Shown here in pieces: positions 2,334 to 38,733 of a stretch of 40,436 nucleotides of DNA (positions within the stretch are counted from its first letter, which is position 1; each line of letters opens with the position of its first letter). A model generated the notes under the pieces. The model had not been told where the DNA came from. It made no database searches and saw nothing but the letters and a program-made list of their open reading frames with translations. A program made the position numbers and the translations under genes. Source of the DNA: Candidatus Omnitrophota bacterium (GTDB lineage Bacteria > Omnitrophota > Gorgyraeia > Gygaellales > JAHJCI01); NCBI GenBank assembly GCA_016783355.1, contig JADHWR010000002.1, positions 1 to 40,436 of the forward strand, read 5' to 3'.

Positions 2334-3402
2334 GGATTTTCTTTATCGAGTTGCTACAGATAAACAAAAGGGGGCGTTTATTTTTGCCTTAAAATTAATT
2401 CTTTATTTTCTGTCCATAATTTATGGCTTTGGAGTCTGTTTACTAAGATTCTTTTGGCAGATTAAGCCGCGTAGATTAAATTGCAAAGTTATCAGTGTGG
2501 GCAATGTTACCTTGGGCGGCACAGGCAAAACTCCCCTTGTTGAATATATTGCACGCTACTTAAGAGACAAAGGACATAAGGTTGCTCTATTAAGCAGGGG
2601 GTATGGAAAGCGAAAAGCGAAAAGCGAAAAGCGAAAAGCGGATTATCAAACAATGGGCGATGAACCGTGTATGTTGTTAAAAAAATTAGGTGATCTTCCT
2701 GTGATTGTTGACAAGGACAGGGTGCGCTCAGCAAAGGAAGCAATCAAGGATTATTCTGTTGACACAGTAATCCTGGATGATGGATTTCAGCAGTGGAGAC
2801 TGAAGAAGGACTTGGAAATAGTAACAATTGATGCAACAAACCCCCTTGGTAACAAGCATCTTCTTCCACGTGGAATCCTGCGTGAGCCCCTATCTTCATT
2901 AAGGCGGGCGCAGGTTTTTGTCTTAACCAAGGTTAATCTTAAGCAAGATGATATTGGCAATATCAAGAGAGCCCTCAAGAAGTTAAATCCTGATGCCTTA
3001 GTTGTTGAGGCAACCTATGAACCACTTGGTTTTTATAAATTGGGCGAAGAAGTAGCAGATAATTTACTTGGCGCTAAGGAATTTGCGAAAGAGCCGGTAA
3101 GTTTAGTTTATGGGATTGCCGAGCCCCAATCATTTGAAAATCTAATTAGTAATTTAGGAATAACGATTGGTTCATCCTTTGGATTCCCCGACCACTATCT
3201 TTATCGTGAAGAGGACCTGAAAGAGATTATCCGGGATTCAAAAGAAAAAGGCATCAGCAAGATTATCACTACAGAGAAGGACGCTGTTCGTCTTCCTGCT
3301 ATGAACTATGAACTATTAGCCATGGACTGTTTTGTCTTGTCCATTCAATTAGAGATTATTCAAGATGAGATATTCAACAAGAGACTACTTTCTATATTTT
3401 AG
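2296..3402 (+). CDS. lpxK: Tetraacyldisaccharide 4'-kinase
   Basis: 368 aa. P-loop GNVTLGGTGKTP followed by LLSRGYG. It overlaps the waaA end, which fits the common waaA-lpxK pairing. Confidence 0.9.
   Translation: MEEILRSRKGGVKDFLYRVATDKQKGAFIFALKLILYFLSIIYGFGVCLLRFFWQIKPRRLNCKVISVGNVTLGGTGKTPLVEYIARYLRDKGHKVALLSRGYGKRKAKSEKRKADYQTMGDEPCMLLKKLGDLPVIVDKDRVRSAKEAIKDYSVDTVILDDGFQQWRLKKDLEIVTIDATNPLGNKHLLPRGILREPLSSLRRAQVFVLTKVNLKQDDIGNIKRALKKLNPDALVVEATYEPLGFYKLGEEVADNLLGAKEFAKEPVSLVYGIAEPQSFENLISNLGITIGSSFGFPDHYLYREEDLKEIIRDSKEKGISKIITTEKDAVRLPAMNYELLAMDCFVLSIQLEIIQDEIFNKRLLSIF
2608..2640. repeat. Heptanucleotide tandem repeat (aagcgaa x about 4.7) inside lpxK, in frame
   Basis: aagcgaa repeats at 2608, 2615, 2622 and 2629, with a partial unit at 2636. 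It encodes KRKAKSEKRKA directly after the conserved SRGYG motif. Confidence 0.9.
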
Positions 3403-5221: not shown

Positions 5222-5657
5222 AGGACGGCGGGTCCTGTCTTCGGCAGAGCCCAAAATTGTCCTCGCTCAAGGGGAAGCCTCTATAGAGCATAATTCGCTG
5301 CGGGCTATTCTGGGCCGCCCACTGCCTCGCCACCCGCTCTTCTTAAAGAGTAGGAGTCGCGGCTACGAGGTTTGTTTCAAGCGGGGCATTGTGTAGCCCG
5401 AAGCAGGCACGGTTCCCTGCCAAAGGCAGGGAGAGCGAGGGCGAGCATTGAGTGAACCCGTTCGACTTCGCTCAGGGTTCATCCTGAGTGAAATCGAAGG
5501 ATGAAGTTTTGCCTCGCCGGGGCAAAACAAACGTCCCCGCGAGAAAGCAAACCGAAGTCAGCCGCGAAGGTTAAATTGTTTGTTTTGGTTGCCACCCGCT
5601 TGGCAGGCAACATTACGAAACCAATTTTGGAAGTCCGACTTCAGATTTTATAAGTTT
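5222..5657. other. GC-rich, ORF-poor, hairpin-dense intergenic region: candidate structured RNA or stack of palindromic elements, class unresolved
   Basis: Visibly more GC-rich than the flanks. Perfect hairpins include ccctgcc-aaa-ggcaggg (5415-5431), gttttgcc-N7-ggcaaaac (5506-5528) and gttgcc-N12-ggcaac (5588-5611), plus a 16-bp imperfect stem at 5460-5497. Long-range complements: cctcgctc (5261-5268) with gagcgagg (5433-5440), and cgggcta (5301-5307) with tagcccg (5394-5400). Confidence 0.4.
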
Positions 5658-7775: not shown

Positions 7776-7803
7776 AGCGCAAAGCGCAAGGCGTAAAGCG
7801 CAA
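7773..7803. repeat. Heptad-repeat module (aagcgca-type units), 31 nt identical to 33682-33712
   Basis: tgaagcgcaaagcgcaaggcgtaaagcgcaa occurs identically at 7773-7803 and 33682-33712 (hand aligned). Its first three bases are the TGA stop of the GT4-GT9 gene. Confidence 0.9.
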
Positions 7804-7815
7804 GACTTTAATATG

Positions 7816-7882
7816 TTGATACCTTGACACTTTGACACCTTGATACCTTGACACAATGTATCAAAGTATCATAGTATCAAAG
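7816..7882. repeat. Inverted array of 8-nt units: (TTGAYACN)x5 followed by (NNGTATCA)x3
   Basis: Units are ttgatacc, ttgacact, ttgacacc, ttgatacc, ttgacaca, then atgtatca, aagtatca, tagtatca. The two halves are imperfect reverse complements, and the mismatches are mostly C.A on the + strand (G.U on the - strand). Confidence 0.85.
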
Positions 7883-7892
7883 TTTTTATAAT

Positions 7893-9718: not shown

Positions 9719-10735
9719 ATGCAGAGAATTCTGATCGTGAATCTAAACTGGTTGGGGGATGCGCTATTTTCCACGCCATTCTTGCGCGCTATAAAAGAGA
9801 ACCTGCCCTCTTCGTACTTGGCAGTTCTGGGTGTTCTGCGCATAAAGGAGATTTTAGAAACAAACCCATACCTTGATCAATTGATCCTCTTTGATGAACG
9901 CGGCAGAGACAAAGGTCTATTTTCCCGCATTAGGTTGATTAAGAGAATTAAAAAAAAGCAGTTCGATACCGTCTTTATACTTAAACCGTCGCTTTCCCGC
10001 ACCTTAATGCTTAAGTTGACAGGGATAAAGGAGTTTATTGGCTTTGATAATTGCAAAAGCGGGTGGCTGCTTACAAAGAGAATACCAAAGCCTAAGAAGA
10101 GCATGCATTTGATCGATTATTTTTTGACAATTCCAGAGCATTCAGGACTTACTATAAAAAAGCGAGTATACGAGTTCTTTCCATCAGTAGAAGATGAGGG
10201 GTATGTTGAGAGTCTTTATTCTCAAAACAAGATTGACTTTCTCCTTCCTTCCATAATCATAAACCCCGGGGCAAACTGGATACCCAAAAGGTGGCCAAAG
10301 GAATTTTGGTCCGGCTTAATTGCTAAGATCAAAGAAAGTCTTAATGTAAATATAATCGTAACCGGCGCAGAGAAAGATAAGGCAATGGCCGCAGAAATAA
10401 TTGAGAGGGGAAAGACTCCTGTTTTTAATCTAACGGGTGAGACCACGCTGCGGCAATTGGGCGCATTGATGAAAAGGGCTAGATTGGTTATCTCGGCTGA
10501 CTCAGGGCCGATGCATATTGCTGCCAGCGTTGGCACAAAGGTTATTGCTCTCTTTGGACCAACAAGTCCGAGTATTACCGGACCGTATCCTTTAGAGCAG
10601 CATATCATTATCCAGAAAGATGTTGGTTGTCCCATTCCTTGTTATAATTCAGATTGCAGAGATTTTCGCTGTATGAAAGCAATCAGCGTAGAAGAAGTAT
10701 TCAGGCAGGTAAAGCAGCTAATTCTATATGATTAA
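9719..10735 (+). CDS. GT9-family (heptosyltransferase-like) glycosyltransferase
   Basis: 338 aa. RILIVNLNWLGDALFSTPFLRAIK and SADSGPMHIAASVGTKVIALFGPTSP, with a C-terminal four-Cys motif. Confidence 0.85.
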   Translation: MQRILIVNLNWLGDALFSTPFLRAIKENLPSSYLAVLGVLRIKEILETNPYLDQLILFDERGRDKGLFSRIRLIKRIKKKQFDTVFILKPSLSRTLMLKLTGIKEFIGFDNCKSGWLLTKRIPKPKKSMHLIDYFLTIPEHSGLTIKKRVYEFFPSVEDEGYVESLYSQNKIDFLLPSIIINPGANWIPKRWPKEFWSGLIAKIKESLNVNIIVTGAEKDKAMAAEIIERGKTPVFNLTGETTLRQLGALMKRARLVISADSGPMHIAASVGTKVIALFGPTSPSITGPYPLEQHIIIQKDVGCPIPCYNSDCRDFRCMKAISVEEVFRQVKQLILYD

Positions 10736-12815
10736 GAAAATTTTATTTATTACTCCGACAAATTTAGGCGATGTAATATTGACTCTGCCTGCTTTGGATG
10801 TGCTGCGTGCAAATTTTCCTCAAGCAAAGATTACAGTGATGACGGGCCTGCCGGCAAAGGAGATTTTTGAAGGCAATCCGTCCTTCGAGTTGATTATCTA
10901 CAACAAATACAAAACAAAAAAACAAAAGACTGAATTATTCTTTGTGTTTTTGAAGAAACGCTTTGATGTGGTAATTGATTTGCGAAATACATTATATGGA
11001 GTACTTCTTCCTGCCAGGTATAAAACCTCGCCCTTTTTACGTACACCTCCAAAAATCACTCAGATGCATCAGCGCAATCTCTATAAAGTAGAGAAGGCTT
11101 TAAGGGGTATTGACCTTTCGATGGCTCCTTGCGAAAAATCTCTCTATATTAGCGCAAAAGATACAGATTACATCGAGCATCTTCTAAATAGGGAAGGGGT
11201 TTGTGATTCTGGCGCGGGGTTTATTGCTGTCGTTCCTTTTGCTAAGGGGCCAACGCGAAGATGGGCAAGAGAAAAGTTTATGCAGGTTTGTAAGGAGTTA
11301 AGCTGCCAATATAAAATAATTCTTATTGGAAGAGAAACAGATAGATGCATTACTCAATTTATCAAAGAGAATTGTTTAAGGAATGTTTTTGATTTTGCCG
11401 GATTGACAAATATTACTCAGCTTGCCTGTTTGTTAAAAAAGGCATCTTTAGTGATTTGTCTGGATACAGGTATTTTGCATCTGGCCAGTTATATGGAGAC
11501 GAGGATTTTGGCTATTTTTGGTCCGAGCAAGGAGGAGAAATATGGACCATGGCGAGAGGGTTCTCTTGTAGTTTCTCGTCAGATTAGGTGTCGGCCATGC
11601 GCAAGGCCTCATTGTCGATTTAATAGTGTGCAGTGTATGCAGTTAATAAAGCCAGAGGATGTGATTAATCGGGCAAAGCAGATGTTGCAGATGTTAACCG
11701 GCCAATCGCAAGTCGCCAATCGCCAATCGCCAATTTTTGAGAGGATTCTTATTATTAGAACCGACCGTCTTGGCGACGTATTATTATCCACGCCTGTAAT
11801 TAAAGCCTTCAGAGATAGCGAGTCAAATGCTTATATCGCAATGATGGTAAGAAAGGAAACCGCAGATATTGTTCTGGGCAATCCTTATCTGGACCAGGTT
11901 TTAATCTACGATAAATACGGAATTCATAAATCTTGGTGGGGGACACTTAAGTTTGCACTGATGCTAAGAAAAGAAAGATTTAACCTGGCCATTATTCTTC
12001 ATCCTACTAATCGTGCGCATCTGGTTGCCTTTTTTGCGCAGATACCTCGCCGGATAGGCTATCATAGAAAACTCGGTTTTTTACTTACGGATAGAATAAA
12101 GCACACAAAAGAAGAAGGCAGAAAACATGAATTAGAATATAATTTAGACCTTGTAAGATACTTAAACATAGAGCCCAAGGATAAAAGCCTCTTGATGCCC
12201 ATCAGGCCAGATTCAGAAAAACGGGTCCAGGCTCTATTTAAGCAATATAATTTAACTAGAGAGGATACCGAAGTCTCGGCATACCGAGGAGAAACTTCGA
12301 AGAAACGCTACATTCGGCATAAGATTGTAGTTATCAATCCAGCAGCAAGCTGTCCTTCAAAGATGTGGCCACGAGAGAGATTTGCCCATATTGCCGACAG
12401 GCTTATTGAAGATTATCATGTCAAAATTATTATTATTACCGGCCCGGGAGAGGAGGCAATCTCAAAAGAGGTTGCGAAAGAGATGAGATGTCCGGCTATA
12501 GATTTAGGCGGTAAAACCTCAGTGAGCGTGCTTGCCAGCTTACTTAAGCGTGCAAGCCTTTTGATTTCAACTGACTCTGGGCCGATGCATATTGCTGCCG
12601 CATTAGGCGTTTCCGTTCTTGCCATATTTGGCCGGGCACAACCAGGATTAAGTCCGCGGCGTTGGGGCCCAGTCGGGGAAAACACGCACATCCTTCATAA
12701 AGACGTAGGCTGCAAAAGCTGCCTTGCCCATAATTGCACGAAAGGCTTTGCTTGCCTCAAGGCAATCAGCGAAAATGAGGTATTTGATTGTGTTGACCAG
12801 TTAATGAAATCCTGA
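10728..12815 (+). CDS. Tandem GT9-GT9 fusion protein (two heptosyltransferase-like domains)
   Basis: 695 aa. Domain 1 starts at KILFITPTNLGDVILTLPALDVL and domain 2 at RILIIRTDRLGDVLLSTPVIKAF, with STDSGPMHIAAALGVSVLAIFG. The domains are joined by a linker encoded by a heptad repeat. Confidence 0.85.
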   Translation: MIKKILFITPTNLGDVILTLPALDVLRANFPQAKITVMTGLPAKEIFEGNPSFELIIYNKYKTKKQKTELFFVFLKKRFDVVIDLRNTLYGVLLPARYKTSPFLRTPPKITQMHQRNLYKVEKALRGIDLSMAPCEKSLYISAKDTDYIEHLLNREGVCDSGAGFIAVVPFAKGPTRRWAREKFMQVCKELSCQYKIILIGRETDRCITQFIKENCLRNVFDFAGLTNITQLACLLKKASLVICLDTGILHLASYMETRILAIFGPSKEEKYGPWREGSLVVSRQIRCRPCARPHCRFNSVQCMQLIKPEDVINRAKQMLQMLTGQSQVANRQSPIFERILIIRTDRLGDVLLSTPVIKAFRDSESNAYIAMMVRKETADIVLGNPYLDQVLIYDKYGIHKSWWGTLKFALMLRKERFNLAIILHPTNRAHLVAFFAQIPRRIGYHRKLGFLLTDRIKHTKEEGRKHELEYNLDLVRYLNIEPKDKSLLMPIRPDSEKRVQALFKQYNLTREDTEVSAYRGETSKKRYIRHKIVVINPAASCPSKMWPRERFAHIADRLIEDYHVKIIIITGPGEEAISKEVAKEMRCPAIDLGGKTSVSVLASLLKRASLLISTDSGPMHIAAALGVSVLAIFGRAQPGLSPRRWGPVGENTHILHKDVGCKSCLAHNCTKGFACLKAISENEVFDCVDQLMKS
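11701..11735. repeat. Heptanucleotide tandem repeat (gccaatc-type x5) at the GT9-GT9 domain junction, in frame
   Basis: Units are gccaatc, gcaagtc, gccaatc, gccaatc, gccaatt. It encodes the inter-domain linker (G)QSQVANRQSPI. Confidence 0.9.
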
Positions 12816-13776: not shown

Positions 13777-13804
13777 TTCGAGATAGAATGGAAGTTTTTA
13801 TGGA

Positions 13805-13936
13805 CAGCGCATTAGAAATCCTTCGGCAGGTGTCTGCAAGGAATTACGAGGAGTGAATGACGGAACTGACCGTAAGGGAATTCCGTCAAATGAACGAGTT
13901 GTAAATCGTAGCAGACGGCGAAAGATTTCAGCGCTG
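13805..13936. other. Candidate structured RNA or leader between hldD and the heptose kinase (nested helices)
   Basis: Outer helix cagcgc (13805-13810) with gcgctg (13931-13936). Next helix gaaatc (13815-13820) with gatttc (13924-13929). Internal hairpins are tcctt-cg-gcag-gtgt-ctgc-aagga and gacggaa-N15-ttccgtc. All helices are Watson-Crick, so the strand is undetermined. Confidence 0.35.
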
Positions 13937-14002
13937 GGAATAAAAATTTTCATTCTGTTAATAGTATAGAGATATGCACACTGTTCAACTATCTCATAGT
14001 CG

Positions 14003-22217: not shown

Positions 22218-24256
22218 TGGAGAAATTGAATTTACTTTTAGCTGTCCATTGTCATCAACCGCAGGGCAATTTCAAACATATTTTTCGTCAGGCCTATCAG
22301 GAGGCATATCTACCATTTATTGAAGTCTTAGAGAGACACCCTTCGATAAAGATTGGCTTGCATTATTCAGGTGCTCTGCTTAATTGGCTAAAGATAAATT
22401 CCCCGGAATTCTTAAAAAAAATAAAACGAATGGTAAGGAATAATCAGATTGAGATTCTGGCTGGTGCCTATTACGAACCCATCCTTAGCTTAATTCCTGA
22501 GGATGATGCCATCGGCCAAATCCGGATGCTTAAAGAAGAAATTGCCGATATATTTTCTTACGAAGCAAAAGGTGCATGGCTCGCCGAGAGGGTTTGGGAG
22601 CCCCAAATGGCCAAGTGCTTAAATCTTGCTGGTATTGATTGGACCATTGTTGATGATTCGCATTTTCGCTCTTGCGGTCTTAATAATCCAGAGTTACCTT
22701 CTGGCTATTATCTTACGGAGGAAGAGGGCCATATCTTAAAGATTTTTGCTGCCTCTGAAAGACTGCGTTATCTGGTGCCCTTTAGGTTGCCCGGGGAATC
22801 TATAGGTTACCTTAAAAATTTATATGAAGAGCATAAGATAAGGTGTGTCTCTTTTGCTGATGATGGTGAAAAATTCGGTCTGTGGCCCGGAACATTTAAA
22901 TGGGTATACAAAGAGTCTTGGCTCGATAATTTTTTCCAGACCATTGAAGAAAATAGCGACTGGATCGAGACCTTGAGCTTTGAAGATTTTTTAAATAAAA
23001 ATCTACCTGCACAAAGGGTTTATTTAAATTGTGCCAGTTACCGGGAGATGATGGAGTGGTCCGGTGGTTTTTTTCGCAACTTCCTAGCAAGATATAGCGA
23101 AGCCAATTGGTTGCATAAGCGAATGCTCTATGTCAGCCAGAAGTTAAGTAAGCTCAAAGCTCAAAGCGCAAAGCGCAAAGCTCAAAAACACAAAAACTTA
23201 CAACTTATGACTTATGACTTACGACTAAATGATGCTCAGCGTCATTTATATATGGCGCAGACAAATGACGTCTATTGGCATGGTGTTTTTGGTGGTTTGT
23301 ATCTTAATTATTTAAGGGGGACTGCCTATTCTAATCTTATTGAGGCAGAGAAGCTTATAAGAGGAAAAAGGACGCCTTCCTTTGAAGAGCTGGATTTAGA
23401 CTGCGATCGGAAATTAGAGGTGATTTTAAACGGGAAAAGCCTTTCCTGTTTTGTTAATGTAGAGGAGGGAGGTGCTTTAAGGGAGCTGGATTATAAGCCA
23501 AAATCGCTAAATCTTATTAATACCTTAATGCGCAGACCAGAAAGCTATCATGCAAGGATAAAAGCAAGGGAAACCCAGCCTGTGACGCAGGAAGATGCAA
23601 TTCAGAGTATCCACGAAATAGAAAGGGAAAGACCTCCCGGTTTGGAGAATTTTCTTTTTTATGATTCGTATCCGCGTTATTGTGCCTTGGATCATTTTTT
23701 TAATGAGGGGGTTGGTCTTGCGGATTTTTTAAATTCGCAATATCATGAATTAGGGGATTTCATTCAGGGCAGATATAAGTATTCGATAAGAAAAGGCAAA
23801 GAGAGACTAACTTTAACAATGGTGCGACAGGGAAAAGCAGGTAGTTGTGATTTAGAATTAAAAAAGGCGATTACACTAACAAAAAAAGAGGAAGACTCTC
23901 TCTTTTTTGATTATTCCATCAGGAATAGAGCAAGCACAAGTACGCCACTGTGTATGGGGATAGAGTTTAACCTTTCCGTATATGATAATGCTTTAAGCAG
24001 CAAAAAAGGCATCCTGAAGAACATTAAAAACTTAAGCTTGCTTGATCAATGGACAGGGTTGATTTTAGAATTTTATTTTAGTGACTCTTTTGATGCGTGG
24101 CATTTTCCCATAGAGACGGTTTCTGATTCAGAAACTGGTCGTCTGAAGAGGACTTATCAACAGTTGTGTTTGTTGTTTGTAATGAAGCTTAAGCCAGAGA
24201 AGGACTTTACGATAAAGCGAACAATAAGGATGAAGATTAAGGCTGATGAAAATTAA
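22217..24256 (+). CDS. Glycoside hydrolase family 57 protein (alpha-glucan acting)
   Basis: 679 aa. N-terminal LAVHCHQPQGNF (the HxHxP-type GH57 region), AERVWEP and FADDGEKFGLWPG. Confidence 0.8.
   Translation: MEKLNLLLAVHCHQPQGNFKHIFRQAYQEAYLPFIEVLERHPSIKIGLHYSGALLNWLKINSPEFLKKIKRMVRNNQIEILAGAYYEPILSLIPEDDAIGQIRMLKEEIADIFSYEAKGAWLAERVWEPQMAKCLNLAGIDWTIVDDSHFRSCGLNNPELPSGYYLTEEEGHILKIFAASERLRYLVPFRLPGESIGYLKNLYEEHKIRCVSFADDGEKFGLWPGTFKWVYKESWLDNFFQTIEENSDWIETLSFEDFLNKNLPAQRVYLNCASYREMMEWSGGFFRNFLARYSEANWLHKRMLYVSQKLSKLKAQSAKRKAQKHKNLQLMTYDLRLNDAQRHLYMAQTNDVYWHGVFGGLYLNYLRGTAYSNLIEAEKLIRGKRTPSFEELDLDCDRKLEVILNGKSLSCFVNVEEGGALRELDYKPKSLNLINTLMRRPESYHARIKARETQPVTQEDAIQSIHEIERERPPGLENFLFYDSYPRYCALDHFFNEGVGLADFLNSQYHELGDFIQGRYKYSIRKGKERLTLTMVRQGKAGSCDLELKKAITLTKKEEDSLFFDYSIRNRASTSTPLCMGIEFNLSVYDNALSSKKGILKNIKNLSLLDQWTGLILEFYFSDSFDAWHFPIETVSDSETGRLKRTYQQLCLLFVMKLKPEKDFTIKRTIRMKIKADEN
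23151..23227. repeat. Eleven consecutive heptads inside GH57, in frame
   Basis: Units are agctcaa, agctcaa, agcgcaa, agcgcaa, agctcaa, aaacaca, aaaactt, acaactt, atgactt, atgactt, acgacta. It encodes KLKAQSAKRKAQKHKNLQLMTYDLRL. The unit series resembles the left half of the intergenic element at 33682. Confidence 0.85.
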
Positions 24257-27018: not shown

Positions 27019-27752
27019 AGGCACTTATTTTAGCGGCAGGTTATGGAACAAGACTTTATCCGTATACGCAAAATAGAGCAAAGTCTCTACTTAAGATAGG
27101 CAAAAGACCGATCATCGATTATTTAATTGAAAAGATAGAGAAGATCTACCAAATTCAGAAGATTATCGTCGTCACAAATGACCGTTTTTTTTCTCAGTTC
27201 AAAAGATGGAAGGTCTGCTCAAAAACGAAGAAACAACTACGCATTATTAATGATTTAACGAGAAGCCCCCAAGATCGGCTCGGTGCAATTGGAGATATTG
27301 AGTTTACTTTAGTAAAAGAAGGAAGCGACAATGATCTTTTAGTTTTAGGGGGAGACAACATTTTTGAAGGCAATTTAGCGAGTTTCTTGAGTTTTGCCCG
27401 CAAGAAGAAGCCCTCTGTTTCAATCGGCGTATTTGATATTAAAAACAGAAATCAAGCAAAGGAATTTGGGGTAGTGAGATTGAATCGAAATATGCGCATC
27501 ATCGAGCTTTGGGAAAAACCGAAAAATCCAAAGTCAACTTATGTAGCAATGTGTTTGTATTACTTTCCCAAAGGGAAGCTTCCTTTAATCACGCAGTACT
27601 TAAGCACCTCAGGAGTTCATCGTGATACACTGGGAAGTTATATTCGTTGGCTATTGAGAAAATCTAAGGTTTATGGATTCGAGTTTAAAGGATTCTGGCA
27701 CGACATAGGTCATCACTATACCTATACAAAGGCGAAGGAGATGTTCAAATGA
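27015..27752 (+). CDS. Sugar-1-phosphate nucleotidyltransferase (NTP_transferase family)
   Basis: 245 aa. N-terminal [16 protein letters not shown] signature and LVLGGDNIF. The sugar and nucleotide specificity cannot be read from the sequence. Confidence 0.75.
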
Positions 27753-30118
27753 AGCGTTTTTATACATCTGAGTCGGTAGGAATGGGTCATCCGGATAAAC
27801 TTTGCGATCAAATATCCGATGCAGTCTTAGATGACGTCATCAGGCAGGACCCGAATAGCCGGGTAGCTTGCGAGACTTATATTACGATGGGTTTGGTAAT
27901 TGTGGGTGGAGAGATAACCACGCGTAGTTTTACCGATGTGCATAATATTGTGCGCAATTTAATCAAGGAGGTCGGTTATACTCATCCTAAATATGGCTTT
28001 GATTATGAGACCTGTGCAATCGTTAATGCCGTACATAGTCAATCGCCGGATATTGCTCAGGGAGTAAATAGGGGTGGCGCAGGTGATCAGGGATGTTTAA
28101 AGAAGGGAACGTTGGTAAAAACAGATAAAGGATTTTTACCCATTGAGGAGATTAAGAAGGGAGATTTGGTAGTTACTCCCTATGGTTTGAGAAAAGTATT
28201 AGAAGCAAGAAAAACAGGTGTAAAAAATATAGTTGAGCTTATTTTTTCTAATGGGATGCGCTTAGAGTGTACACCTGAACATAGAGTTTTTTGCTACAGC
28301 AAGGATGGAAAAACTTATTGGCAAGAAGCGTCTAAATTAACTTCAAAGGATTTTGTATGTATTTTGAAATCGAGTGAAATTAGCTCCTCGAAATATATAA
28401 CTTCCAGAGTAGAAAAGAAAGAGTTTTTTACTAAATATAATCATAAGATATATGGACAAGAAGAAGTAATCCTCGATGATGAAATCGCCTATATTGCAGG
28501 GTTGCTTATAGGCGATGGTGCCTGTAATAATAAAATGTTAATGGAAATTTCTTTTGGAAGGGATAGAGGATATGCCTTGAAGGTTAAGAAAATGTTAGAT
28601 AGGAAATTTTCTAATCAATGGAGATTAATACAGGCAAAAGATGGGACATTTAATTTAAAGATAGATTCAGTTTTAGTTAGAAGACATTTTGAAAATTTTG
28701 GAGTAGGATATAATAAAGCTCCGGAAAAAGTAACTCCACAAGCTATTTTTATTTCTCCTAAGAATGTAATAAAAGCCTATCTAAGAGGGCTGTTTGATAG
28801 TGACGGAACCGTTGTCCCTAATACAGGGAGGAAGAAGGAGAATATTAGGGTTAGGTTAGGTTCCACTTCATATAAATTATTAGAAGAAACCCAACTTTTA
28901 CTGAATGATTTTAGAATAAAAAGCTCGATTCTTTTCAATGCTCCTAAAGGAATACCTGTAGGTAAAGACAAAAGATACAAATCTAAGCATGATAGTTTTG
29001 CATTGAGTTTAGCAGGATTTGAGAGCTATCAGAATTTTGGTAAACAGATTGGTTTTTCTCATCCTCAAAAAGCAAAAAGGTTACGCAGGTATTTAGAAGC
29101 TATCCAAACTAAGCCTAAAAATTCACCAAGTATATATCTTCTGCCCCATCCTTACAAAGAAGAGATGATAGGAGAAGAGCTAATAAGTAAGAATTTACCA
29201 TTTGGGATTACTACTGTAAAGACAAAAGTTAAAAAGAGCAAAGCAGAGGTTTATGATTTAGAAATATCTAAGAGGAATGTATTTTCTGCAAATGGAGTGT
29301 TTGTCCATAACTCAATGATTGGTTACGCCTGTTCTGAGAGTCCGGAATTTATGCCTTTACCTATTATGCTTTCCCATAAACTGGTAATGCAGATGGCAAA
29401 GGTGAGAAAGGAAGGTATTTTAAGCTATTTGGGCCCTGATGGCAAATCACAGGTTACCGTGGAATATCATAACGGAAAGCCTGTTTGCGTTGATACTGTA
29501 GTTCTTGCCTGTCAGCATACTGATGAGATTCTTAATAGAAGCGGAGATGCTATTACCCAAAGGGCAAGAAATGAAATTATAGAAGCAATTGCCAAGCCTG
29601 TCTTAAAAGGATGGATTGATAAGGATACCAAATATTTCGTTAATCAAACGGGCAAATTCGTAATTGGCGGACCACAGTCAGATACAGGTATGACTGGTAG
29701 AAAGATTATCGTGGATACTTATGGTGGATGTGTGCCTCATGGGGGTGGCTGCTTTTCAGGCAAAGATCCGACAAAGGTTGACCGCTCTGCTGCTTATATG
29801 GCAAGATATGCTGCCAAGAATATTGTTGCTGCGGGTTTGGCAAAAAGATGCTTGATTCAATTAGCCTATGTAATCGGAAAGGCGCAGCCCCTCTCGATAA
29901 TGGTTGATACATCTGGCACCTCAAGTATTTCCGAGGAGAAAATTGTCAATTTAATCAGAAAGAAATTTGACCTTACGCCAAAGGGAATTATTAAAACCCT
30001 GGATTTGCTAAAGCCGATATACAGAAAAACTGCTTGTTTTGGTCATTTTGGGAGACCAGAATTTAGCTGGGAGAAGTTAGATAAGGTAAAGGAATTGCAG
30101 AATGGACTTCGGGGGTAG
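27749..30118 (+). CDS. metK: S-adenosylmethionine synthetase interrupted by an intein (precursor 789 aa; spliced product about 383 aa)
   Basis: The N-extein has [22 protein letters not shown] and ends in GAGDQG. The C-extein is SMIGYACSE...DTYGG...[19 protein letters not shown]. The exteins together match the length and motifs of normal MetK. Confidence 0.93.
28094..29311 (+). mobile_element. Class 1 intein with LAGLIDADG homing-endonuclease domain, inserted in the MetK GAGDQG|S motif
   Basis: 406 aa. Cys1 ([10 protein letters not shown], block A), TPEH (block B, TxxH), LAGLIDADG motifs [10 protein letters not shown] and [11 protein letters not shown], then VYDLEI (block F) and VFVHN (block G), followed by the +1 Ser. 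Frame and boundaries were hand-checked (TGT at 28094, AAC at 29309-29311). Confidence 0.9.
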
Positions 30119-30131
30119 ATAAAGGAGGACA

Positions 30132-31391
30132 ATGACTTACGATATCAAAGACATAAAATTAGCCGATAAAGGTAGATTGAGAATAGAATGGGCGGCGGAT
30201 AATATGCCGGTAATGGCTGAGATTGGCCAGCGTTTTCAAAAAGAAAAACCCCTCAAAGGAATAAAGCTTGCTTGTTGTTTACATGTCACAACAGAGACTG
30301 CTGTTTTGATGTATGTTTTAAAAGCAGGAGGAGCAAGCTTAGTTTTGTGCGCCTCCAATCCTTTATCCACACAGGATGATGTTGCGGCAAGTTTAGTTAA
30401 ACACCTGAAAATTCCTGTGTTTGCGATTAAAGGCGAGAAAGATAGCACTTATTATCAGCATCTAAAATCTGTTTTAGCAATTAAACCTGATATTACTATG
30501 GATGATGGCGCAGATTTAGTATCAGCAGTACACCGAAGCCCGAAGCCCGAAGCCCGAAGCCCGATTATGGGCGGCACAGAAGAAACAACAACCGGCGTAA
30601 TTAGATTGCGTGCCCTGGAAAAGGAAGGCAAATTAAGATATCCCCTTATTGCCGTTAATGATGCAGACACAAAGCATCTTTTTGACAATCGTTATGGCAC
30701 AGGTCAGTCAACAATTGATGGGATTCTCAGGGCAACCAATAAGCTGCTTGCGGGCAGCATATTTGTCGTTTGCGGATATGGTTTTTGCGGCCGCGGGGTT
30801 GCCCGGCGCGCGCAGGGGATGGGCGCAAATGTTATTATCTGTGAAACAAATCCTTTATCTGCCCTGGAGGCAGCAATGGATGGTTTAAGGGTTTTGCCTT
30901 TAAGTGAGGCAGCTAAGATTGGAGACATATTTGTTACTGTTACGGGTGATATTAGTGTTTTACGAAAGGAGCATTTCCTGAAAATGAAGGATGGGGCGAT
31001 TTTAGCTAATGCCGGGCATTTTAATGTGGAGATAGATGTTGATTCTTTAAAGAGATTAAGTAAAAGACAAAGGACGATCAGAGAATATGTTGAGCAGTAT
31101 ACCTTGAGAGACGGAAAAAGAATTTATCTATTGGGTGAGGGCCGTTTAATTAATTTAGCTGCTGCTGAGGGTCATCCTGCTCAGGTTATGGATATGAGTT
31201 TTGCCAATCAGGCACTCTGCGCCGAATATATTAAAAACAATTATCAAAGATTAGAAAATAAAGTATATAATGTTCCACGTAAGATTGATAATCTGATTGC
31301 CAGGCTAAAATTAGAATCCTTGGGGATAAAGATAGATTCTCTGACAAAGAAGCAAATTAGTTATTTAGAAAGTTGGCAGTCAGGTACTTAA
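30132..31391 (+). CDS. ahcY: Adenosylhomocysteinase
   Basis: 419 aa. [19 protein letters not shown] and NAD-binding [11 protein letters not shown]. Confidence 0.92.
30533..30564. repeat. Heptanucleotide tandem repeat (gaagccc x4 plus partial units) inside ahcY, in frame
   Basis: gaagccc repeats at 30535, 30542, 30549 and 30556. It encodes SPKPEARSP immediately upstream of the conserved [10 protein letters not shown]. Confidence 0.9.
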
Positions 31392-32424: not shown

Positions 32425-33681
32425 ATGGAAGAAAAAACAAATAATTTGTTAGAGAGAGTAAAAGAACTCTCTCTAAGTGACGACATGAAGATAAAGGAAG
32501 AAATAGGCAGAGACTTTTTTGAGCTGGCCAAAAACAAAGGAATATATTCCTCTTCGATTAACGATCTTTATATGGCGCGGGGAAAAAATGAATTTGCGCC
32601 AAATTTTACTGTGCCGGCAATAAATATAAGAACAATGACTTTAGATTTAGCCCGGGCAATATTCAGAGCAGCAAAAAGAATTAATGCCGGCACTTTTATC
32701 TTTGAGATTGCGAAAACAGAGATGGGTTATACTAATCAGCCGCCGATCGAGTATAGTACAAATGTTTTGGCCGCTGCAATATGCGAAAACTGGAGTGGCC
32801 CTGTATTTATCCAGGGAGACCATTTTCAGATGAAGGCGAAGAAGTTTATGGAGAGTTCAGAGAAAGAGATCGAGGCATTAAAGAAAGTAATCTCTGATGC
32901 AATTGAGGCAGGCTTTTACAATATTGATATTGACTCTTCTACGCTTGTAGATTTAAGCAAGCCCGACATAAAGACGCAGCAATATCTAAATTATGATGTC
33001 TGCGCATGGCTCACTAATTTTATCCGTCACAGCCAGCCGCGGGGAATTAAGGTGTCTGTGGGCGGTGAGATTGGCGAGATAGGCCAGAAGAATTCTACTC
33101 CCGAAGAATTAAGAGGATTTATTGAGGGTTATCAGCAGCGTTTGCCCGAAGGTGTAACAGGCCTAAGCAAGATTAGCGTGCAGACAGGAACAAGTCACGG
33201 CGGTGTGGTTTTACCCGACGGTTCTATTGCCGAGGTAGCGATTGACTTCAATACATTAAAGCAGCTTTCGCGCATTGCGCGCAAAGAATTTGGTTTAGCT
33301 GGTGCTGTTCAGCATGGTGCCTCAACATTACCATCTGAGGCCTTTCATAAATTTGTCGAGTGCGAGACAGTCGAGGTTCACTTAGCCACAGACTTTCAGA
33401 ATATGGTTTATGAAAGCAAGCACTTCCCTCAGGATTTAAGAGAAAGGATGTACGATTGGTTAAGAGAGAATCTTGCCGGAGAAAAGAAAGAAGGCCAGAC
33501 TGACGAGCAGTTTATTTATAAAACGCGCAAAAAGGCACTCGGTACATTTAAAAAAGAGATTTTAGGTCTGAAACAAGAAGTTCGCGATGCGATTACGGCA
33601 GAAGTTGAGAAGAAATTTGCTTTTCTTTTTGAGCAATTAAATATTGCTAATACAAAAGATTTGGTTGATAAGTATATTTAA
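32425..33681 (+). CDS. fba: Class II fructose-bisphosphate aldolase family protein (long form)
   Basis: 418 aa. VPAINIRT, FIQGDHF, IDIDSS, QTGTSHGG and VQHGAST are consistent with the F_bP_aldolase family. The exact substrate is inferred. Confidence 0.7.
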   Translation: MEEKTNNLLERVKELSLSDDMKIKEEIGRDFFELAKNKGIYSSSINDLYMARGKNEFAPNFTVPAINIRTMTLDLARAIFRAAKRINAGTFIFEIAKTEMGYTNQPPIEYSTNVLAAAICENWSGPVFIQGDHFQMKAKKFMESSEKEIEALKKVISDAIEAGFYNIDIDSSTLVDLSKPDIKTQQYLNYDVCAWLTNFIRHSQPRGIKVSVGGEIGEIGQKNSTPEELRGFIEGYQQRLPEGVTGLSKISVQTGTSHGGVVLPDGSIAEVAIDFNTLKQLSRIARKEFGLAGAVQHGASTLPSEAFHKFVECETVEVHLATDFQNMVYESKHFPQDLRERMYDWLRENLAGEKKEGQTDEQFIYKTRKKALGTFKKEILGLKQEVRDAITAEVEKKFAFLFEQLNIANTKDLVDKYI

Positions 33682-33803
33682 TGAAGCGCAAAGCGCAAGG
33701 CGTAAAGCGCAAAACTGAAACTAAAAACTCAAAACTTTCTTAAAAAACTTTGAACTTTAGACATTAGTTTTACGCTTTTCGCTTTAGGTTTTATGCTTTT
33801 AAG
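33682..33803. repeat. Heptad-periodic intergenic element, copy A (fba-ilvD spacer)
   Basis: About 17 consecutive 7-nt units (agcgcaa... aactNNN... actttNN... ttttacg, cttttcg...). The ends are imperfect inverted heptad arrays. It is the reverse complement of copy B at 38611-38716. Confidence 0.9.
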
Positions 33804-33812
33804 GAGGTACTG

Positions 33813-35465
33813 ATGCGTTCAGATAGGGCAAAGAAGGGTTTGGAAAGGATGCCTAACCGAGCCCTTCTTTATGGAACAGGCATATCACCTTCTCATATGA
33901 AGAGGCCGTTTATTGGCATTGCCTCTTCATTTACAGATTTAATCCCCGGCCATATTGGTATGCGTGATTTAGAAAGATATATCGAGAGGGGGATAGAGAA
34001 CGCCGGTGGATGTCCTTTTGTCTTTGGGGTTTGCGGAATCTGTGATGGGATTGCCATGGGTCATTCTGGAATGAGGTATTCTTTGCCTTCAAGGGAGTTG
34101 ATTGCGGATATTATTGAGACAATGGTCAATGCCCATGCCTTAGACGGAGTTGTTTTATTGACGGATTGCGATAAGATTACTCCCGGTATGATTATGGGGG
34201 CATTGCGGGTAAACATTCCGGCAATTGTCGTCACAGCAGGTCCGATGCTTGCCGGTCATCTAGGAAGAAAAAGGCTTTCTTTGGTCAGAGATACATTTGA
34301 GGCTGTCGGGCGTTTTAAGAAAAAAGAGATTACAGAAAAAGAAAGATCTATTTTGGAAATCGAGGCATGTCCTGGGGCTGGTTCTTGTCAGGGAATGTAT
34401 ACGGCAAATACGATGTCCTGCCTTACTGAGGCAATGGGGTTTTCTCTGCCTTTTTGTGCAGCAACGCCCGCTGTACTTAACAAAAAAAAGAGGATTGCTT
34501 ATCAGAGTGGCCAGAGGATAATGGATTTGGTAAAAAGAGATATCAGGCCGCGTGATATAGTAAATAAAAGGTCATTGGAAAATGCTGTTCGTGTTGATAT
34601 GGCTTTGGGTGGTTCAACCAATACAGTTTTACATTTGATTGCCATTGCCTCTGAGGCAAAGACCCTCCTTGATTTAAGGGACTTTGACCGCATCAGTAAG
34701 ACAACATCCCATATTGTTAATCTTCGTCCAGCAGGTGAATACTTTATGGAGGATTTAGATTATGCCGGAGGGATTCCTGCAGTTTTAAAGAGATTACTTC
34801 CTAAATTAAACGAGAATGTGTGTGTTTCGGCAAAAACGATTAAGGAGATTGCCAGGGAAGCACAGATTCTTGATCAGGAGATAATCAGGCCGCAAAAGCA
34901 AGCCTATCATAAAGAGGGAGGCATTGCTGTTCTCTATGGGAATTTAGCGCCTTTTGGGGCTGTGGTCAAGCAGTCAGCTGTTGATGAGGATATGTTAAAA
35001 TTTACCGGTAAAGCCCAGGTGTTTAATTCTGAAGAGGAGGCAATGAAAGGCATTATGCAGGGCCGGGTTAAAAAAGGGAATGTTCTCGTCATAAGGTATG
35101 AGGGGCCAGGCGGTGGCCCTGGGATGAGAGAGATGCTTTCTCCAACTTCAGCTATTGTGGGTATGGGTTTACACAAATCCGTTGCCTTAATTACCGACGG
35201 AAGATTTTCTGGTGGAACAAGGGGTCCTTGTATCGGTCATATTTGCCCTGAGGCGCAAAAAGCAGGACCTATTGCGATTATTCAAAATGGTGATAAGATT
35301 AAGATAGATATACCAAAGCGTAGATTAGAGCTATTGCTTTCGGAGAGAGAAATTAAAGAGCGCAAAAGTTTGTTTAAGCCACCGAATCTGAAGGTGTCTT
35401 CCGGGTATTTAGCTCGCTATGCAGGGATAGTAGGCTCTGCTGATAAGGGGGCAGTGTTGATATGA
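33813..35465 (+). CDS. ilvD: Dihydroxy-acid dehydratase
   Basis: 550 aa. [19 protein letters not shown] and GRFSGGTRG. An AGGAGG RBS lies upstream. Confidence 0.93.
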
Positions 35466-37141
35466 CGGGTGCACAGATTTTAATTGAGTGTTTAAGGCGT
35501 GAGGGTGTTGAGGTAATATTTGGATATCCGGGGGGAGCGGTTCTTCCTATATTCGACCAGCTCTACGAAGCTCCGATTCGGTTTATCTTAGCACGTCATG
35601 AGCAGGCAGCTGCTCATGCTGCTGATGGATATGCGCGAGCAACAGGAAAAACAGGCGTTTGTATTGCTACAAGTGGTCCTGGAGCAACAAACTTAACTAC
35701 AGGAATTGCCACTGCTTATATGGACTCAGTTGCCATTGTTGCGATAACTGGTCAGGTAAAGACAAATCTTATTGGTAATGATGCATTCCAGGAAGCAGAT
35801 GTGGTGGGAATTACACGGCCAATTACCAAGTACAACTTTTTGGTAAAGGATGCTCGGGATTTGGCAAGAGTTATACGTGAGGCTTTCCATATTGCTTCAA
35901 CAGGAAGACCAGGTCCGGTTCTGATTGACTTTCCTTCTGATGTGCAAACACAGGAAACTCAATTTATCTGGCCGGAAAGGATAGAGATAAGGGGCTACAA
36001 ACCTACCTATTTCGGTCATCCTGGTCAGATTAAAAAGGCACTGCATCTGATTACTCAGTCAGAGAAACCCGTAATTTATGCTGGTGGAGGAGTAATTAGT
36101 TCAGGAGCGAGTGAGGAAGTGAAGGAACTGGCAGAGAGACTCCAAATACCAGTAACGATGACCTTAATGGGCCTGGGCAGTTTTCCCGGCGAGCATACTT
36201 TAAGTTTGGGGATGCTCGGGATGCACGGAACAGTTTATGCAAACCATGCTGTGACAGGTTCTGATTTAATGATTGCCATTGGCGCCCGTTTTGATGACCG
36301 GGTTACTGGCCGGCTTGACTCTTTTGCTCCCGATGCCAAAATTATTCATATTGATATTGACCCCGCCTCAATTAGTAAAAATGTAAAGGTTGATGTGCCG
36401 ATTGTGGGAGATGTGAAAAATGTTTTAGAGCAGTTACTTGAGGAAATAGAGCTAAAGCATAATCAACTACCCAATACAAAAGCGTGGCTGAAGACAATTA
36501 GAGACTGGAAGAGGAAGTATCCGCTTTTCTATAAAAAAGATGATGCGGGTCTCAGGCCCCAATATATTATTGAGCAGATTTACGAACTAACAAAGGCAGA
36601 GGCAATAATCACCACAGAGGTTGGCCAGAATCAGATGTGGGCAGCGCAGTGGTATAAGTATAAGGATGCGCATACCTTTATCTCCAGCGGTGGTTTAGGC
36701 ACAATGGGCTTTGGATTTCCTGCCGCAATTGGCGCAAAGGTGGCTTGTCCTGACAAAGAGGTTTTTGATATTGCGGGCGATGGCTCAATCCAGATGAATA
36801 TTCAGGAACTGGCAACAGCAGTGGAACAAAAGATTTATGTTAAGATTGCGATTCTTAATAATTCTTATTTAGGAATGGTAAGACAGTGGCAGGAGTTATT
36901 TTATAAGAAGCGCTATTCATATACACATATTACTAGTCCTGATTTTGTGAAATTAGCCCAGGCTTATGGTGCAGTAGGCATTCGCGTAAGCAAGAAAGAT
37001 GAGGTGCGGCCTGCTATTGAGAGGGCGATCAAGACTGACAATGTCGTTATGATTGATTTTCGAATTGAGCCTGAGGAGAATGTGTTTCCGATGGTCCCTG
37101 CAGGTGAGGCGATTAATAGAATGATTGGAGGCATGGCTTAA
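35462..37141 (+). CDS. ilvB: Acetolactate synthase large subunit
   Basis: 559 aa. [12 protein letters not shown] and the TPP motif [16 protein letters not shown]...[12 protein letters not shown]. Confidence 0.92.
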
Positions 37142-37612
37142 ATGAGGCATACAATTTCAATTCTCGTTGAGAATAAGCCGGGTGTTTTAGCAAGAATAGC
37201 CGGGCTTTTTAGTGCACGAGGCTATAATATTAGCTCTTTGGCTGTTGGTGAGACGCAAGACCCGGAAATCTCCCGGATGACGCTCGTTGTTGAGGCGAAG
37301 GATGAGCGCATCTTAGAGCAGATTATAAAACAATTGCGTAAACTCATTGATACAATTACCGTCGCTGACTTTACAAAAAAGGATTTTGTTGGCCGGGAGT
37401 TGGCTTTGGTTAAGATTGATTATAAAAGAGAGAATCAACGAAAGATTTCCTCTTTCCTTGATAAATATTCAGTAAAATTACTTAAACGCAAAGAGGATAA
37501 GGCAATTATTGAAATTTGTGCCAACCCGGATAAGGTAAAGGAGTTTTTGAAGGATGTAAGAGCCTTTGGTGTTGTTGAGTTGATGCGCACAGGAAGGGTG
37601 GCGATGCTGTAA
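37142..37612 (+). CDS. ilvN: Acetolactate synthase small (regulatory) subunit
   Basis: 156 aa. ACT domain HTISILVENKPGVLARIAGLFSARGYNI. Confidence 0.9.
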   Translation: MRHTISILVENKPGVLARIAGLFSARGYNISSLAVGETQDPEISRMTLVVEAKDERILEQIIKQLRKLIDTITVADFTKKDFVGRELALVKIDYKRENQRKISSFLDKYSVKLLKRKEDKAIIEICANPDKVKEFLKDVRAFGVVELMRTGRVAML

Positions 37613-37624
37613 AGGGAGAAAACG

Positions 37625-38620
37625 ATGGCAAGGATATATTACGATAAAGATGCAGACCTAAATTTATTGAAAGAAAAAAAAGTTGCCATTATTGGCTATG
37701 GGATTCAAGGCCGAGGCCAGAGTTTATGTTTAAGAGATAGTGGTATAAATGTAATTGTTTCTGAATTAGAGGGAACAGTAAATTACGAACTGGCCAAAAA
37801 GGATGGGTTTAGTCCTCTTTCGGCAAAAGAGGCAAGTGCAGCTGCCGATATAATTCAGATTCTCACCGAGGACCATGTTCAAAAAAGGGTTTATAAAGAG
37901 GCAATCGAGTCAAATCTAAAAGAGGGTAAAGCACTTTGTTTTTCACACGGATTTAATATCCGCTTTAAACAGATAATTCCACCGAAGGAAGTGGATGTTT
38001 TTATGATTGCGCCGAAAGGTCCGGGTGCGCTGGTGAGAAAGATGTTTGAAGAAGGAAAGGGCGTGCCTTGTTTGGTTGCTGTGTATCAGGATGCCAGCGG
38101 AATGGCTTTAAAACTTGCTTTATCTTATGCCAAGGCACTCAAAGCAACTACTGCCGGCGTGATCGAGACTACCTTTCAGGAGGAAACAGAAACAGATTTG
38201 TTTGGTGAACAGACCGTTCTCTGCGGCGGTGTAACCGAATTGATTATGGCGGGGTTTGATACATTGACTAATGCCGGTTATCAGCCAGAGATTGCTTATT
38301 TTGAGGTTCTTCATGAGTTGAAACTTATTACTGACCTGATTCAAGAGAAGGGTATAAGTGGTATGCGCCGATGCGTCTCTAATACTGCTTGCTATGGAGA
38401 TTTGACACGAGGTAAGAAGATTATTACCAAGCAGACACGCCGGCAGATGAGAAAGATTTTAAAAGATATACGGAGTGCTAAATTTGCTCGTGAGTGGATT
38501 TCTGAGAACGAAAAAGGAAGACCAAATTTTAATAAGCTCCTCAGAGAGGCAGATAACCATTTGATTGAAAAGGTAGGTAAAGAACTGCGGCAGATGATGC
38601 CCTGGATGAGAAAAGCGTAA
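37625..38620 (+). CDS. ilvC: Ketol-acid reductoisomerase
   Basis: 331 aa. [19 protein letters not shown] and [12 protein letters not shown]. The stop codon lies inside repeat copy B. Confidence 0.93.
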
Positions 38621-38716
38621 AGCGTAAAGCGAAAAGCGTAAAACTAATGTCTAAAGTTCAAAGTTTTTTTAAGAAAGTTTTGAATTTTTAGTTTCAGTTT
38701 TGCGCTTTGCGCCTTA
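38611..38716. repeat. Heptad-periodic intergenic element, copy B (ilvC-leuA spacer), inverted relative to copy A
   Basis: Hand alignment to the reverse complement of 33684-33800 gives perfect blocks of 45 nt (38625-38669 with 33742-33786), 13 nt and 24 nt. These are separated by one 1-nt indel and one mismatch. The heptad copy number differs at both ends. Confidence 0.9.
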
Positions 38717-38733
38717 AGTTTTTAGTTATAGGT

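Follow-up and report, generated by a model that had tools for sequence, protein, structure and literature searches.

The genes ilvD, ilvB, ilvN and ilvC of a Candidatus Omnitrophota bacterium (contig JADHWR010000002.1) stand between two inverted copies, A and B, of an element built from 7-nucleotide (nt) units, here called heptads. We asked what these elements are and whether their position around the ilv genes carries any meaning. The window, that is, the whole stretch of DNA analyzed, is 40.4 kb long with 40.8% GC, and all of its long open reading frames (ORFs) are on the plus strand. The closest relatives of its IlvD protein are 78 to 79% identical, and several of them are named Candidatus Omnitrophota. 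A sequence-only reading of the locus had offered three explanations for the bracket: a segment that could be inverted or excised by recombination, a segment mobilised as a composite unit, or RNA hairpins at operon junctions that act in processing or stability. Our analysis makes it probable that A and B are gene-less hairpin elements resembling the intervening sequences (IVS) of 23S rRNA, that they belong to a dispersed intercistronic family and are co-transcribed with the operon, and that they enclose the ilv genes by coincidence.

Copies A and B at the ends of the ilv segment

The two copies and their common core are as follows; the nhmmer matches refer to the family profile described in the next section.

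33683-33799, plus strand: copy A, a heptad-periodic imperfect palindrome (profile match 33685-33798, E = 8.6e-24)
38611-38723, minus strand: copy B, the reverse-complement element (profile match 38613-38725, minus strand, E = 1.1e-23)
33704-33786, plus strand: core of A common to B, made of perfect blocks of 24, 13 and 45 nt
38625-38708, minus strand: core of B, the counterpart of the A core

Alignment of A with the reverse complement of B gave 104 identical positions out of 118 (88%), compared with 73% identity when A and B were aligned directly. The score of the former alignment was 89, while the best of 500 shuffles reached 12. Perfect identity extends over 24 nt (A 33704-33727, B 38685-38708), 13 nt (A 33729-33741, B 38671-38683) and 45 nt (A 33742-33786, B 38625-38669), and the blocks are parted by one mismatch and one 1-nt indel. 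Each block occurs once per strand in the window. At one end, A exceeds B by two terminal heptads. The positions and the alignment bear out the inverted bracket that had been claimed from the sequence, and the claimed details (blocks of 45, 13 and 24 nt, one indel, one mismatch and unequal numbers of terminal heptads) were all exact. The shared core includes a centre that is not made of heptads and is specific to this genome.

The 7-nt periodicity of the copies is strong. The lag-7 autocorrelation was 0.57 for A and 0.59 for B, compared with 0.27 to 0.28 for shuffled sequences, none of which (0 of 2,000) was as high, and Tandem Repeats Finder (TRF) reported period-7 arrays at 33684-33713, 33710-33736, 33769-33799 and 38612-38642. 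Each copy is predicted to fold into one hairpin, with 44 pairs and -35.6 kcal/mol for A (z = -3.7) and 46 pairs and -37.3 kcal/mol for B (z = -4.8). The helices of both are short, often 5 to 6 bp, and are separated by small internal loops; those of A comprise 6, 5, 6, 6, 8, 5, 5 and 3 pairs, mostly with 1- to 3-nt internal loops between them. The apex loops measure 5 nt in A (33739-33743) and 4 nt in B (38669-38672). As both copies are imperfect palindromes, the resemblance to a miniature inverted-repeat transposable element (MITE), suggested earlier from the inverted heptad arrays at their ends, holds. No Rfam family matched anywhere in the window at the gathering threshold, and at E <= 10 copy A matched only generic microRNA-precursor hairpin models, below threshold. 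A scan for promoters and terminators (sigma-70 and intrinsic terminator) reported none inside A or B.

The elements fit closely between the genes of the cluster, which are laid out as follows.

32425-33681, plus strand: fba, class II aldolase (PF01116)
33813-35465, plus strand: ilvD, dihydroxy-acid dehydratase
35462-37141, plus strand: ilvB, acetolactate synthase large subunit
37142-37612, plus strand: ilvN, acetolactate synthase small subunit
37625-38620, plus strand: ilvC, ketol-acid reductoisomerase (TAA stop at 38618-38620)
38735, plus strand: ATG that is the true start of leuA, 2-isopropylmalate synthase

Copy A begins 1 nt past the stop codon of fba, and its end lies 1 nt upstream of the ribosome-binding site (RBS) of ilvD, AAGGAGG (33800-33806). 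Copy B takes in the last 10 nt of ilvC, including the stop, and ends 11 nt before the leuA ATG. The first helix of B holds the final ilvC codons and the TAA stop, and B supplies the last codon and the stop of the gene. The downstream RBS is unpaired in the predicted folds. The spacers are 131 nt (fba/ilvD, 33682-33812) and 114 nt (ilvC/leuA). The remaining junctions of the cluster measure -4, 0 and 12 nt, with genes overlapping or nearly so; thus, room for an insertion exists only at the two junctions that are occupied.

That the copies delimit a mobile or invertible cassette is suggested by the perfect inverted blocks of 24 and 45 nt, which are long enough in principle for homologous recombination. 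However, three related loci (L007, L008 and L009, with IlvD 78 to 79% identical) keep the order metK-ahcY-(pfk)-fba-ilvD-ilvB-ilvN-ilvC-leuA-aroE on the same strand and lack copies A and B, indicating that the ilv segment is ancestral and in place; this synteny speaks against the proposed mobilisation as a composite unit. The window and three independent ENA assemblies (L001 to L003) have identical spacers and a single orientation, and short Logan contigs end inside B, as expected at a repeated 45-mer. Window gene calls revealed no transposase or invertase between A and B, in agreement with the sequence-only reading, and the sole recombinase of the window, a XerC/D-like gene (64-969), is 33 kb from the ilv segment. 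We found neither a transposase in or beside the segment that would serve a composite transposon nor a cassette absent from or displaced in these three relatives. Likewise, neither the second orientation nor a nearby recombinase was seen in the window and L001 to L003, all of which are assemblies, from which rare variants could escape. Inversion would also set four genes against a uniform plus-strand block, leuA of the same pathway is left outside the bracket, and other copies of the family bracket arbitrary gene sets in two further contigs (L017 and L058, below). We therefore consider it extremely improbable that the ilv segment is a composite mobile unit or a cassette that can be inverted or excised.

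In the related loci, the fba/ilvD and ilvC/leuA junctions have other occupants, including other heptad arrays. The fba/ilvD spacer of L007 contains (TAACTSG)x5 directly before the RBS (TAACTCG TAACTGG TAACTGG TAACTCG TAACTGA), and an extra gene is the other junction occupant in this locus. L008 has (GATAGAA)x5 and small GC hairpins, and L009 has a 224-nt GC-rich spacer and, alone among the three, a related 90-nt heptad hairpin after ilvC. The orientation of this hairpin relative to B is ambiguous (score 38 direct, 31 as reverse complement). The C-terminal ending that B supplies to ilvC, RKA-stop, is also found in L009 and not in L007 or L008. Other spacers of these relatives contain CACAGAT/ATCTGTG hairpins, resembling the GACAGAT heptamers of the Coxiella IVS; the L007 array and these hairpins lie at L007 2314-2376, L007 4030-4134 and L009 2343-2500. 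That inverted copies enclose ilvDBNC is incidental. Nothing special follows from it for the ilv cluster, and the bracket simply reflects which sites tolerate insertions.

A dispersed hairpin family with and without PF05635 genes

Members of the family were searched for with a left-arm and a right-arm 20-mer as patterns and with an nhmmer profile built from 21 copies. The left-arm 20-mer was present in one Omnitrophota metagenome-assembled genome (MAG), BS750m-G22, on four contigs that show a layout like that of A: stop codon, AAAGCGN-type array, centre, NCGCTTT-type array, RBS and ATG. Eleven further matches to this pattern were single chance or coding matches. The right-arm 20-mer was found in at least 120 metagenome stretches, about a quarter of which were unrelated gut coding sequence; among the matches listed, with this gut family removed, 51 of 90 stretches pair the pattern with an upstream arm. 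The profile gave 122 non-overlapping matches in 91 loci, and 22 aligned copies yielded the consensus nAGCGnAAAACTnAAAGCGCAAAGCGCAAAGTTAAAnCGTAAAnnTTAAAACG / TTTTAAACTTTAAACTTTAGTTTTACGCTTTTCGCTTTACGCTTTACGCTT. The element is about 90 to 130 nt long, and its arms are complementary arrays of 7-nt units, AAAGCGN and NCGCTTT, changing to AAAACTN and AAAGTTN toward the centre. The arm pattern was absent from viral contigs, with no hint of a phage vector. One AT-rich contig (L063) contains about 250 nt of unbroken AAAGCGA/AAAACTA-type heptads upstream of the match, showing that arms can expand to more than 30 units.

Several copies can occur on one short contig. A 7.5-kb Omnitrophota contig (L017) carries three, in the orientations minus, plus and plus, each of which fills the spacer from the stop codon to the RBS. 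A 10.9-kb contig (L058) carries four, in the orientations minus, plus, minus and plus. Copies occupy three of the six junctions in the former and four of the seven in the latter, both orientations being represented. It had been stated beforehand that the ilv bracket would have to be taken as coincidence if the element filled most intergenic spacers in random orientation and no structural variants existed. This is largely what we observed: both orientations occur and no structural variant was seen, although the share of occupied junctions is about half rather than most.

In several loci the arms are 350 to 450 nt apart and enclose a small gene. Five of the enclosed ORFs match Pfam PF05635 (E = 4e-13 to 3e-25), which bears the Pfam name "23S rRNA-intervening sequence protein." PF05635, alias S23p, is a four-helix bundle related to Avd, and the closest solved structure to a long-form protein was 2RLD (E = 8e-20). 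When a profile of the PF05635 ORFs was run against the 0.97 Mb of sequence searched, it detected eight genes, all of them between or beside heptad arms. The profile of the short copies, in turn, matches both arms of the long forms in L026, L076, L037 and L123 and one arm in L102 and L137. By these matches, the arms of the family to which A and B belong are homologous to the arms of PF05635-bearing copies. Complementary arms of 7-nt units forming a long stem are found in A, in B and in the gene-bearing elements alike. Both forms are present on one 3.6-kb contig (L123), the short one at 847-977 and the long one at 2841-3289, between leuD-like and leuB-like genes. They have arms in common, and their 5' arms agree at 52 of 59 positions. 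L037 and L123 represent the same locus in two samples, and an in-frame TAA interrupts the long-form PF05635 gene of L037 at a codon that reads TCA in L123, which suggests that the gene is decaying in one population.

The same architecture was found on annotated plasmids. A tblastn search of a plasmid collection with one long-form protein returned 30 records, and we inspected ten genes annotated as "four helix bundle protein." Nine of them have a tandem heptad array upstream and a complementary array downstream. The hosts are Nostoc, Planktothrix, Dolichospermum, Anabaena, Euhalothece, Gloeocapsa, Bernardetia and Chlorohelix, belonging to Cyanobacteriota, Bacteroidota and Chloroflexota. The heptad unit varies by lineage, and the architecture is constant: (CAATTCG)n / (CGAATTG)n in Nostoc punctiforme, (TTAGTGA)x15 / ATCACTAA in Bernardetia, GATTTTA / TAAAATC in Chlorohelix and Gloeocapsa, (AATCCCC, AATCGTA) / (CGATTTA...) in Planktothrix, (TAATTCG) / (TTACGAA) in Dolichospermum and Nostoc flagelliforme, and (ACCAGTG) / (CACTGGT)x13 in Euhalothece. 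Using an annotation-free scan for inverted repeats in six plasmid loci of 6.3 kb, we found the score at the gene to be clearly the highest in four (16 to 32, against a background median of about 7), marginal in Anabaena cylindrica (11.5) and within the background in Chondrinema (10). The plasmid genes are placed between operon genes, eight of the ten in sense orientation. The operons (L147, L148 and L150 to L153) are often defence related, and the sites include helicase/methylase, cas2/cas1 and RND (efflux pump) adaptor/permease pairs. In both Gloeocapsa and Chlorohelix, the PF05635 gene lies between DUF1156 and Swt1-HEPN and has the same heptad unit.

Judged from its sequences, the family has the architecture of an IVS but sits in spacers between protein-coding genes. 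The tie between heptanucleotide arrays and PF05635 genes is clear and apparently unreported. In the literature searched, we found no paper linking PF05635 or IVS with STRR (short tandemly repeated repetitive) or heptamer arrays beyond a note on Coxiella, and none on intergenic palindromic repeats in Omnitrophota.

Origin and role of the hairpins

Regulatory RNA selected by the host for the stability or translation of operon segments, with the likeness to PF05635 elements being secondary, would account for several features of the family. The placement is precise, from the stop codon to just before an unpaired RBS, and a 20-nt arm sequence is kept across hosts of 30 to 67% GC. Where both flanks could be classified, co-directional contexts numbered 11 and 10 by orientation, among them four in-ORF copies, probably chance matches, and two duplicates of one locus; two contexts were divergent and none was convergent. 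The lack of copies between convergent genes would suit a regulatory role, whereas the about equal frequency of both orientations argues against it, as may the lack of a significant sense-strand folding bias. The downstream genes are also mutually unrelated (ilvD, leuA, clpC-like, phosphoglycerate mutase-like and leuB), and the same junction is differently occupied in close relatives. Moreover, partial and in-gene copies occur, two of them in the window:

7775-7829, plus strand: partial one-armed copy (nhmmer E = 1.1e-4)
23151-23221, plus strand: degenerate in-frame segment in a GH57 4-alpha-glucanotransferase gene (nhmmer E = 1.2e-4)

The sequence at 7770-7807, which starts at a stop codon, matches the first 38 nt of A with 95% identity. 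The GH57 segment, also reported by TRF, consists of AAGCTCA/AAGCGCA x5 followed by ACTTACG x4 and adds about 26 residues to the middle domain, as judged from the PF09094 match, which covers 97 residues for 79 model positions, and from an alignment to PDB entry 1K1W. On balance, we regard host-selected regulatory RNA as unlikely.

A different possibility is that each spacer generated its element locally, through replication slippage of 7-nt units and fold-back copying, and that the elements do not move between sites. Heptad arrays of many sequences are indeed present throughout the window, including inside genes, and in the relatives, and at their ends A and B differ in the number of complete heptads. 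The window contains three perfect arrays of at least three units, all of period 7; there were none at periods 4 to 6 or 8 to 12 and none in codon shuffles. In-frame period-7 arrays lie in the conserved genes lpxK (2607-2640), ahcY (30533-30564) and waaA (1914-1945) and in a GT9-GT9 ORF (11701-11734). The lpxK array replaces a loop with no net insertion, that of ahcY recodes a variable loop, which becomes longer by a net 3 amino acids, and that of the GT9-GT9 ORF (10728-12815) lies in the linker between the two GT9 domains. Local origin would also agree with the commonness of heptanucleotide repeats, which, according to the summary of Mrazek 2007 in PMC4679880, are the commonest long simple repeats in many prokaryotes. 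However, A and B share identical stretches of 45 and 24 nt, including the non-heptad centre, and different contigs of one MAG (L010, L014 and L020) share another genome-specific centre. A centre common to the copies of one genome points to copying within genomes rather than to independent local origin. The identical 20-mer in hosts of very different GC is a further objection, and slippage accounts for the growth of arms and not for their origin. Local origin is in our opinion improbable.

The arrays could also act as DNA, providing phased binding sites or cruciforms to which a nucleoid protein, or a protein such as the PF05635 pentamer, would bind. Such a role is suggested by the strict 7-nt periodicity, by the equally good folding of both strands and by the constant pairing of the arms with a nucleic-acid-binding four-helix-bundle family. 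Conversely, a 7-bp period is out of phase with the DNA helix, and the sole experimental data for this architecture concern RNA, namely, the cutting of IVS stems by RNase III. Action at the DNA level appears very improbable.

Several observations weigh against interpreting A and B as IVS-like elements of a dispersed family. There is no PF05635 ORF in the 40-kb window, and the loops of A and B are only 5 and 4 nt long; hence, A and B can only be gene-less derivatives. We know of no transposase activity of PF05635. No target-site duplication was seen at the ends of A and B by inspection, with no empty site available for comparison. The hosts are diverse, with 30 to 67% GC, and one locus has a weak Parcubacteria-like neighbour (45% identity); a protein search at a high-GC locus yielded no taxon names. 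RNAalifold applied to 22 copies, in which the right arm is fixed by the search pattern, returned only two pairs and no consensus structure. The explanation is that the arms can pair in several registers, 7 nt apart, with about equal success (65 to 70% of cells paired at offsets 149, 156 and 163). Of 33 copies, 21 folded better as the sense strand and 12 as the antisense strand, a difference that is not significant (p = 0.23). Lastly, one of the ten plasmid genes (L150) has weak arms only.

With these points taken into account, we still favor the interpretation of A and B as gene-less, IVS-like hairpins, and it would imply the following course of events. Copies would arise by copying within the genome, as the 45-nt core common to A and B suggests, and would settle wherever a co-directional gene junction has free space. 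The arms may grow and shrink in 7-nt steps by slippage of units, since A and B differ by two heptads and Coxiella strains vary in heptad number. Within the plus-strand gene block, the element would be transcribed as part of the operon and the transcript would form an interrupted duplex, about 45 bp long, without involving the downstream RBS. The stem may then be cut by RNase III, as IVS stems are, or remain as a stable hairpin, and in both cases the fba, ilvDBNC and leuA portions of the transcript would have separate fates. By analogy with IVS, A and B are probably RNase III substrates or stable intercistronic hairpins. The earlier suggestion of RNA hairpins at operon junctions, acting in processing or stability, is thus the one now favored, through the link to 23S rRNA IVS, and the cutting of IVS stems by RNase III makes it concrete.

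More tentatively, elements with a PF05635 gene and a heptad stem might form one selfish class that crosses phyla. The IVS of 23S rRNA would be its rRNA-resident subset, and the Omnitrophota hairpins would be gene-less remnants, which may also make up at least part of the heptanucleotide arrays (STRR, TAACTGA type); an Avd-like pentamer might recognise the stem and aid spread or processing. We put this forward as a possibility that may well prove wrong.

Additional features of the window were noted. A second repeat family has 8-nt units (GTATCAAN / TTGATACC) and is represented by two features:

980-1017: period-8 single arm, in the 65-nt spacer before waaA
7816-7883: period-8 full hairpin, in the 117-nt spacer 7776-7892, adjoining the one-armed heptad copy

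The 358-nt spacer 5222-5579 has 55 to 60% GC, compared with 41% for the genome, and a fold z-score of -5.2. It has no Rfam match even at E <= 1; a structured RNA and a group of clustered small GC-rich palindromes are both possible. Another spacer, 13777-14002 (226 nt), has no long ORF, heptad array or Rfam match at the gathering threshold. MetK (27749-30118) is 789 amino acids long and contains an intein with a LAGLIDADG endonuclease domain (PF14890, PF14528), while the MetK proteins of L008 and L009 (382 to 385 amino acids) lack the intein.

Comparison with known systems

Both the origin and the function of 23S rRNA intervening sequences are described as still unclear (PMC4990558), as are those of bacterial heptanucleotide arrays (PMC4679880). 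The role of PF05635 genes is no clearer, and the present analysis ties all three together: the same arms are found whether or not the gene is present, their location is mRNA spacers and not rRNA, and Omnitrophota, Cyanobacteriota, Bacteroidota, Chloroflexota and Coxiella all show the architecture. The hairpins also offer concrete substrates on which RNase III processing of operon transcripts and binding by PF05635 proteins could be examined. For annotation, heptad arrays can supply stop codons and C termini, as at the end of ilvC, and can fuse ORFs or lengthen them, the GH57 gene and the GT9-GT9 ORF being examples.

Small size, lack of an ORF, terminal inverted repeats and many copies are features that the A/B family has in common with MITEs and with the palindromic elements of Rickettsia. 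Rickettsia palindromic elements have in-frame copies inside genes, to which the GH57 segment may be compared. Unlike in MITEs, no target-site duplication was seen at A or B, and the family has no known transposase-bearing parent; its long forms encode PF05635.

REP/BIME, REPIN and the 127-bp ERIC/IRU elements of proteobacteria are palindromes of operon spacers for which roles in mRNA stability have been proposed. Like the A/B family, they are dispersed imperfect palindromes in transcribed spacers, occurring in either orientation and with copies very similar within a genome. The A/B family differs in size, in its heptad periodicity and in a long relative that encodes PF05635 and not a Y1 transposase. 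In size and sequence, A and B do not fit the 20- to 40-nt palindromes with a conserved tetranucleotide that define REP and REPIN. No REP-associated tyrosine transposase (RAYT) was seen, the search for one being confined to the window.

The 7-nt unit is shared with the STRR sequences of cyanobacteria and with the TAACTGA repeats of Beggiatoaceae. These arrays are intergenic, end a few nucleotides before start codons and are sometimes found inside ORFs; the paper on the TAACTGA repeats (MacGregor 2015, PMC4679880) draws no link to PF05635. The array in the fba/ilvD spacer of L007 is of this TAACTGA type. STRR and TAACTGA repeats are described as direct arrays of one unit, whereas the A/B family consists of two complementary arrays that form a hairpin.

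A close parallel is with the IVS of 23S rRNA in Coxiella burnetii and Leptospira. Short IVS of about 100 nt that lack an ORF exist in Salmonella and other enterobacteria. Strictly, an IVS is an insertion in a 23S rRNA helix (helix 25 or 45); no rRNA was found in the window, and A and B, which contain no ORF, sit between protein-coding genes. The whole arm is heptad periodic in the A/B family, unlike that of the rRNA elements. On the other hand, in the 428-nt IVS of Coxiella burnetii the inverted repeats at the ends pair into a stem that RNase III cuts, the loop holds an S23p ORF of the same family as PF05635, and tandem heptameric repeats (GACAGAT) vary in number among strains (PMC4990558). 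An inverted-repeat stem with a PF05635 gene in its loop is what the long forms of the A/B family share with these IVS, and a selfish origin is presumed for both.

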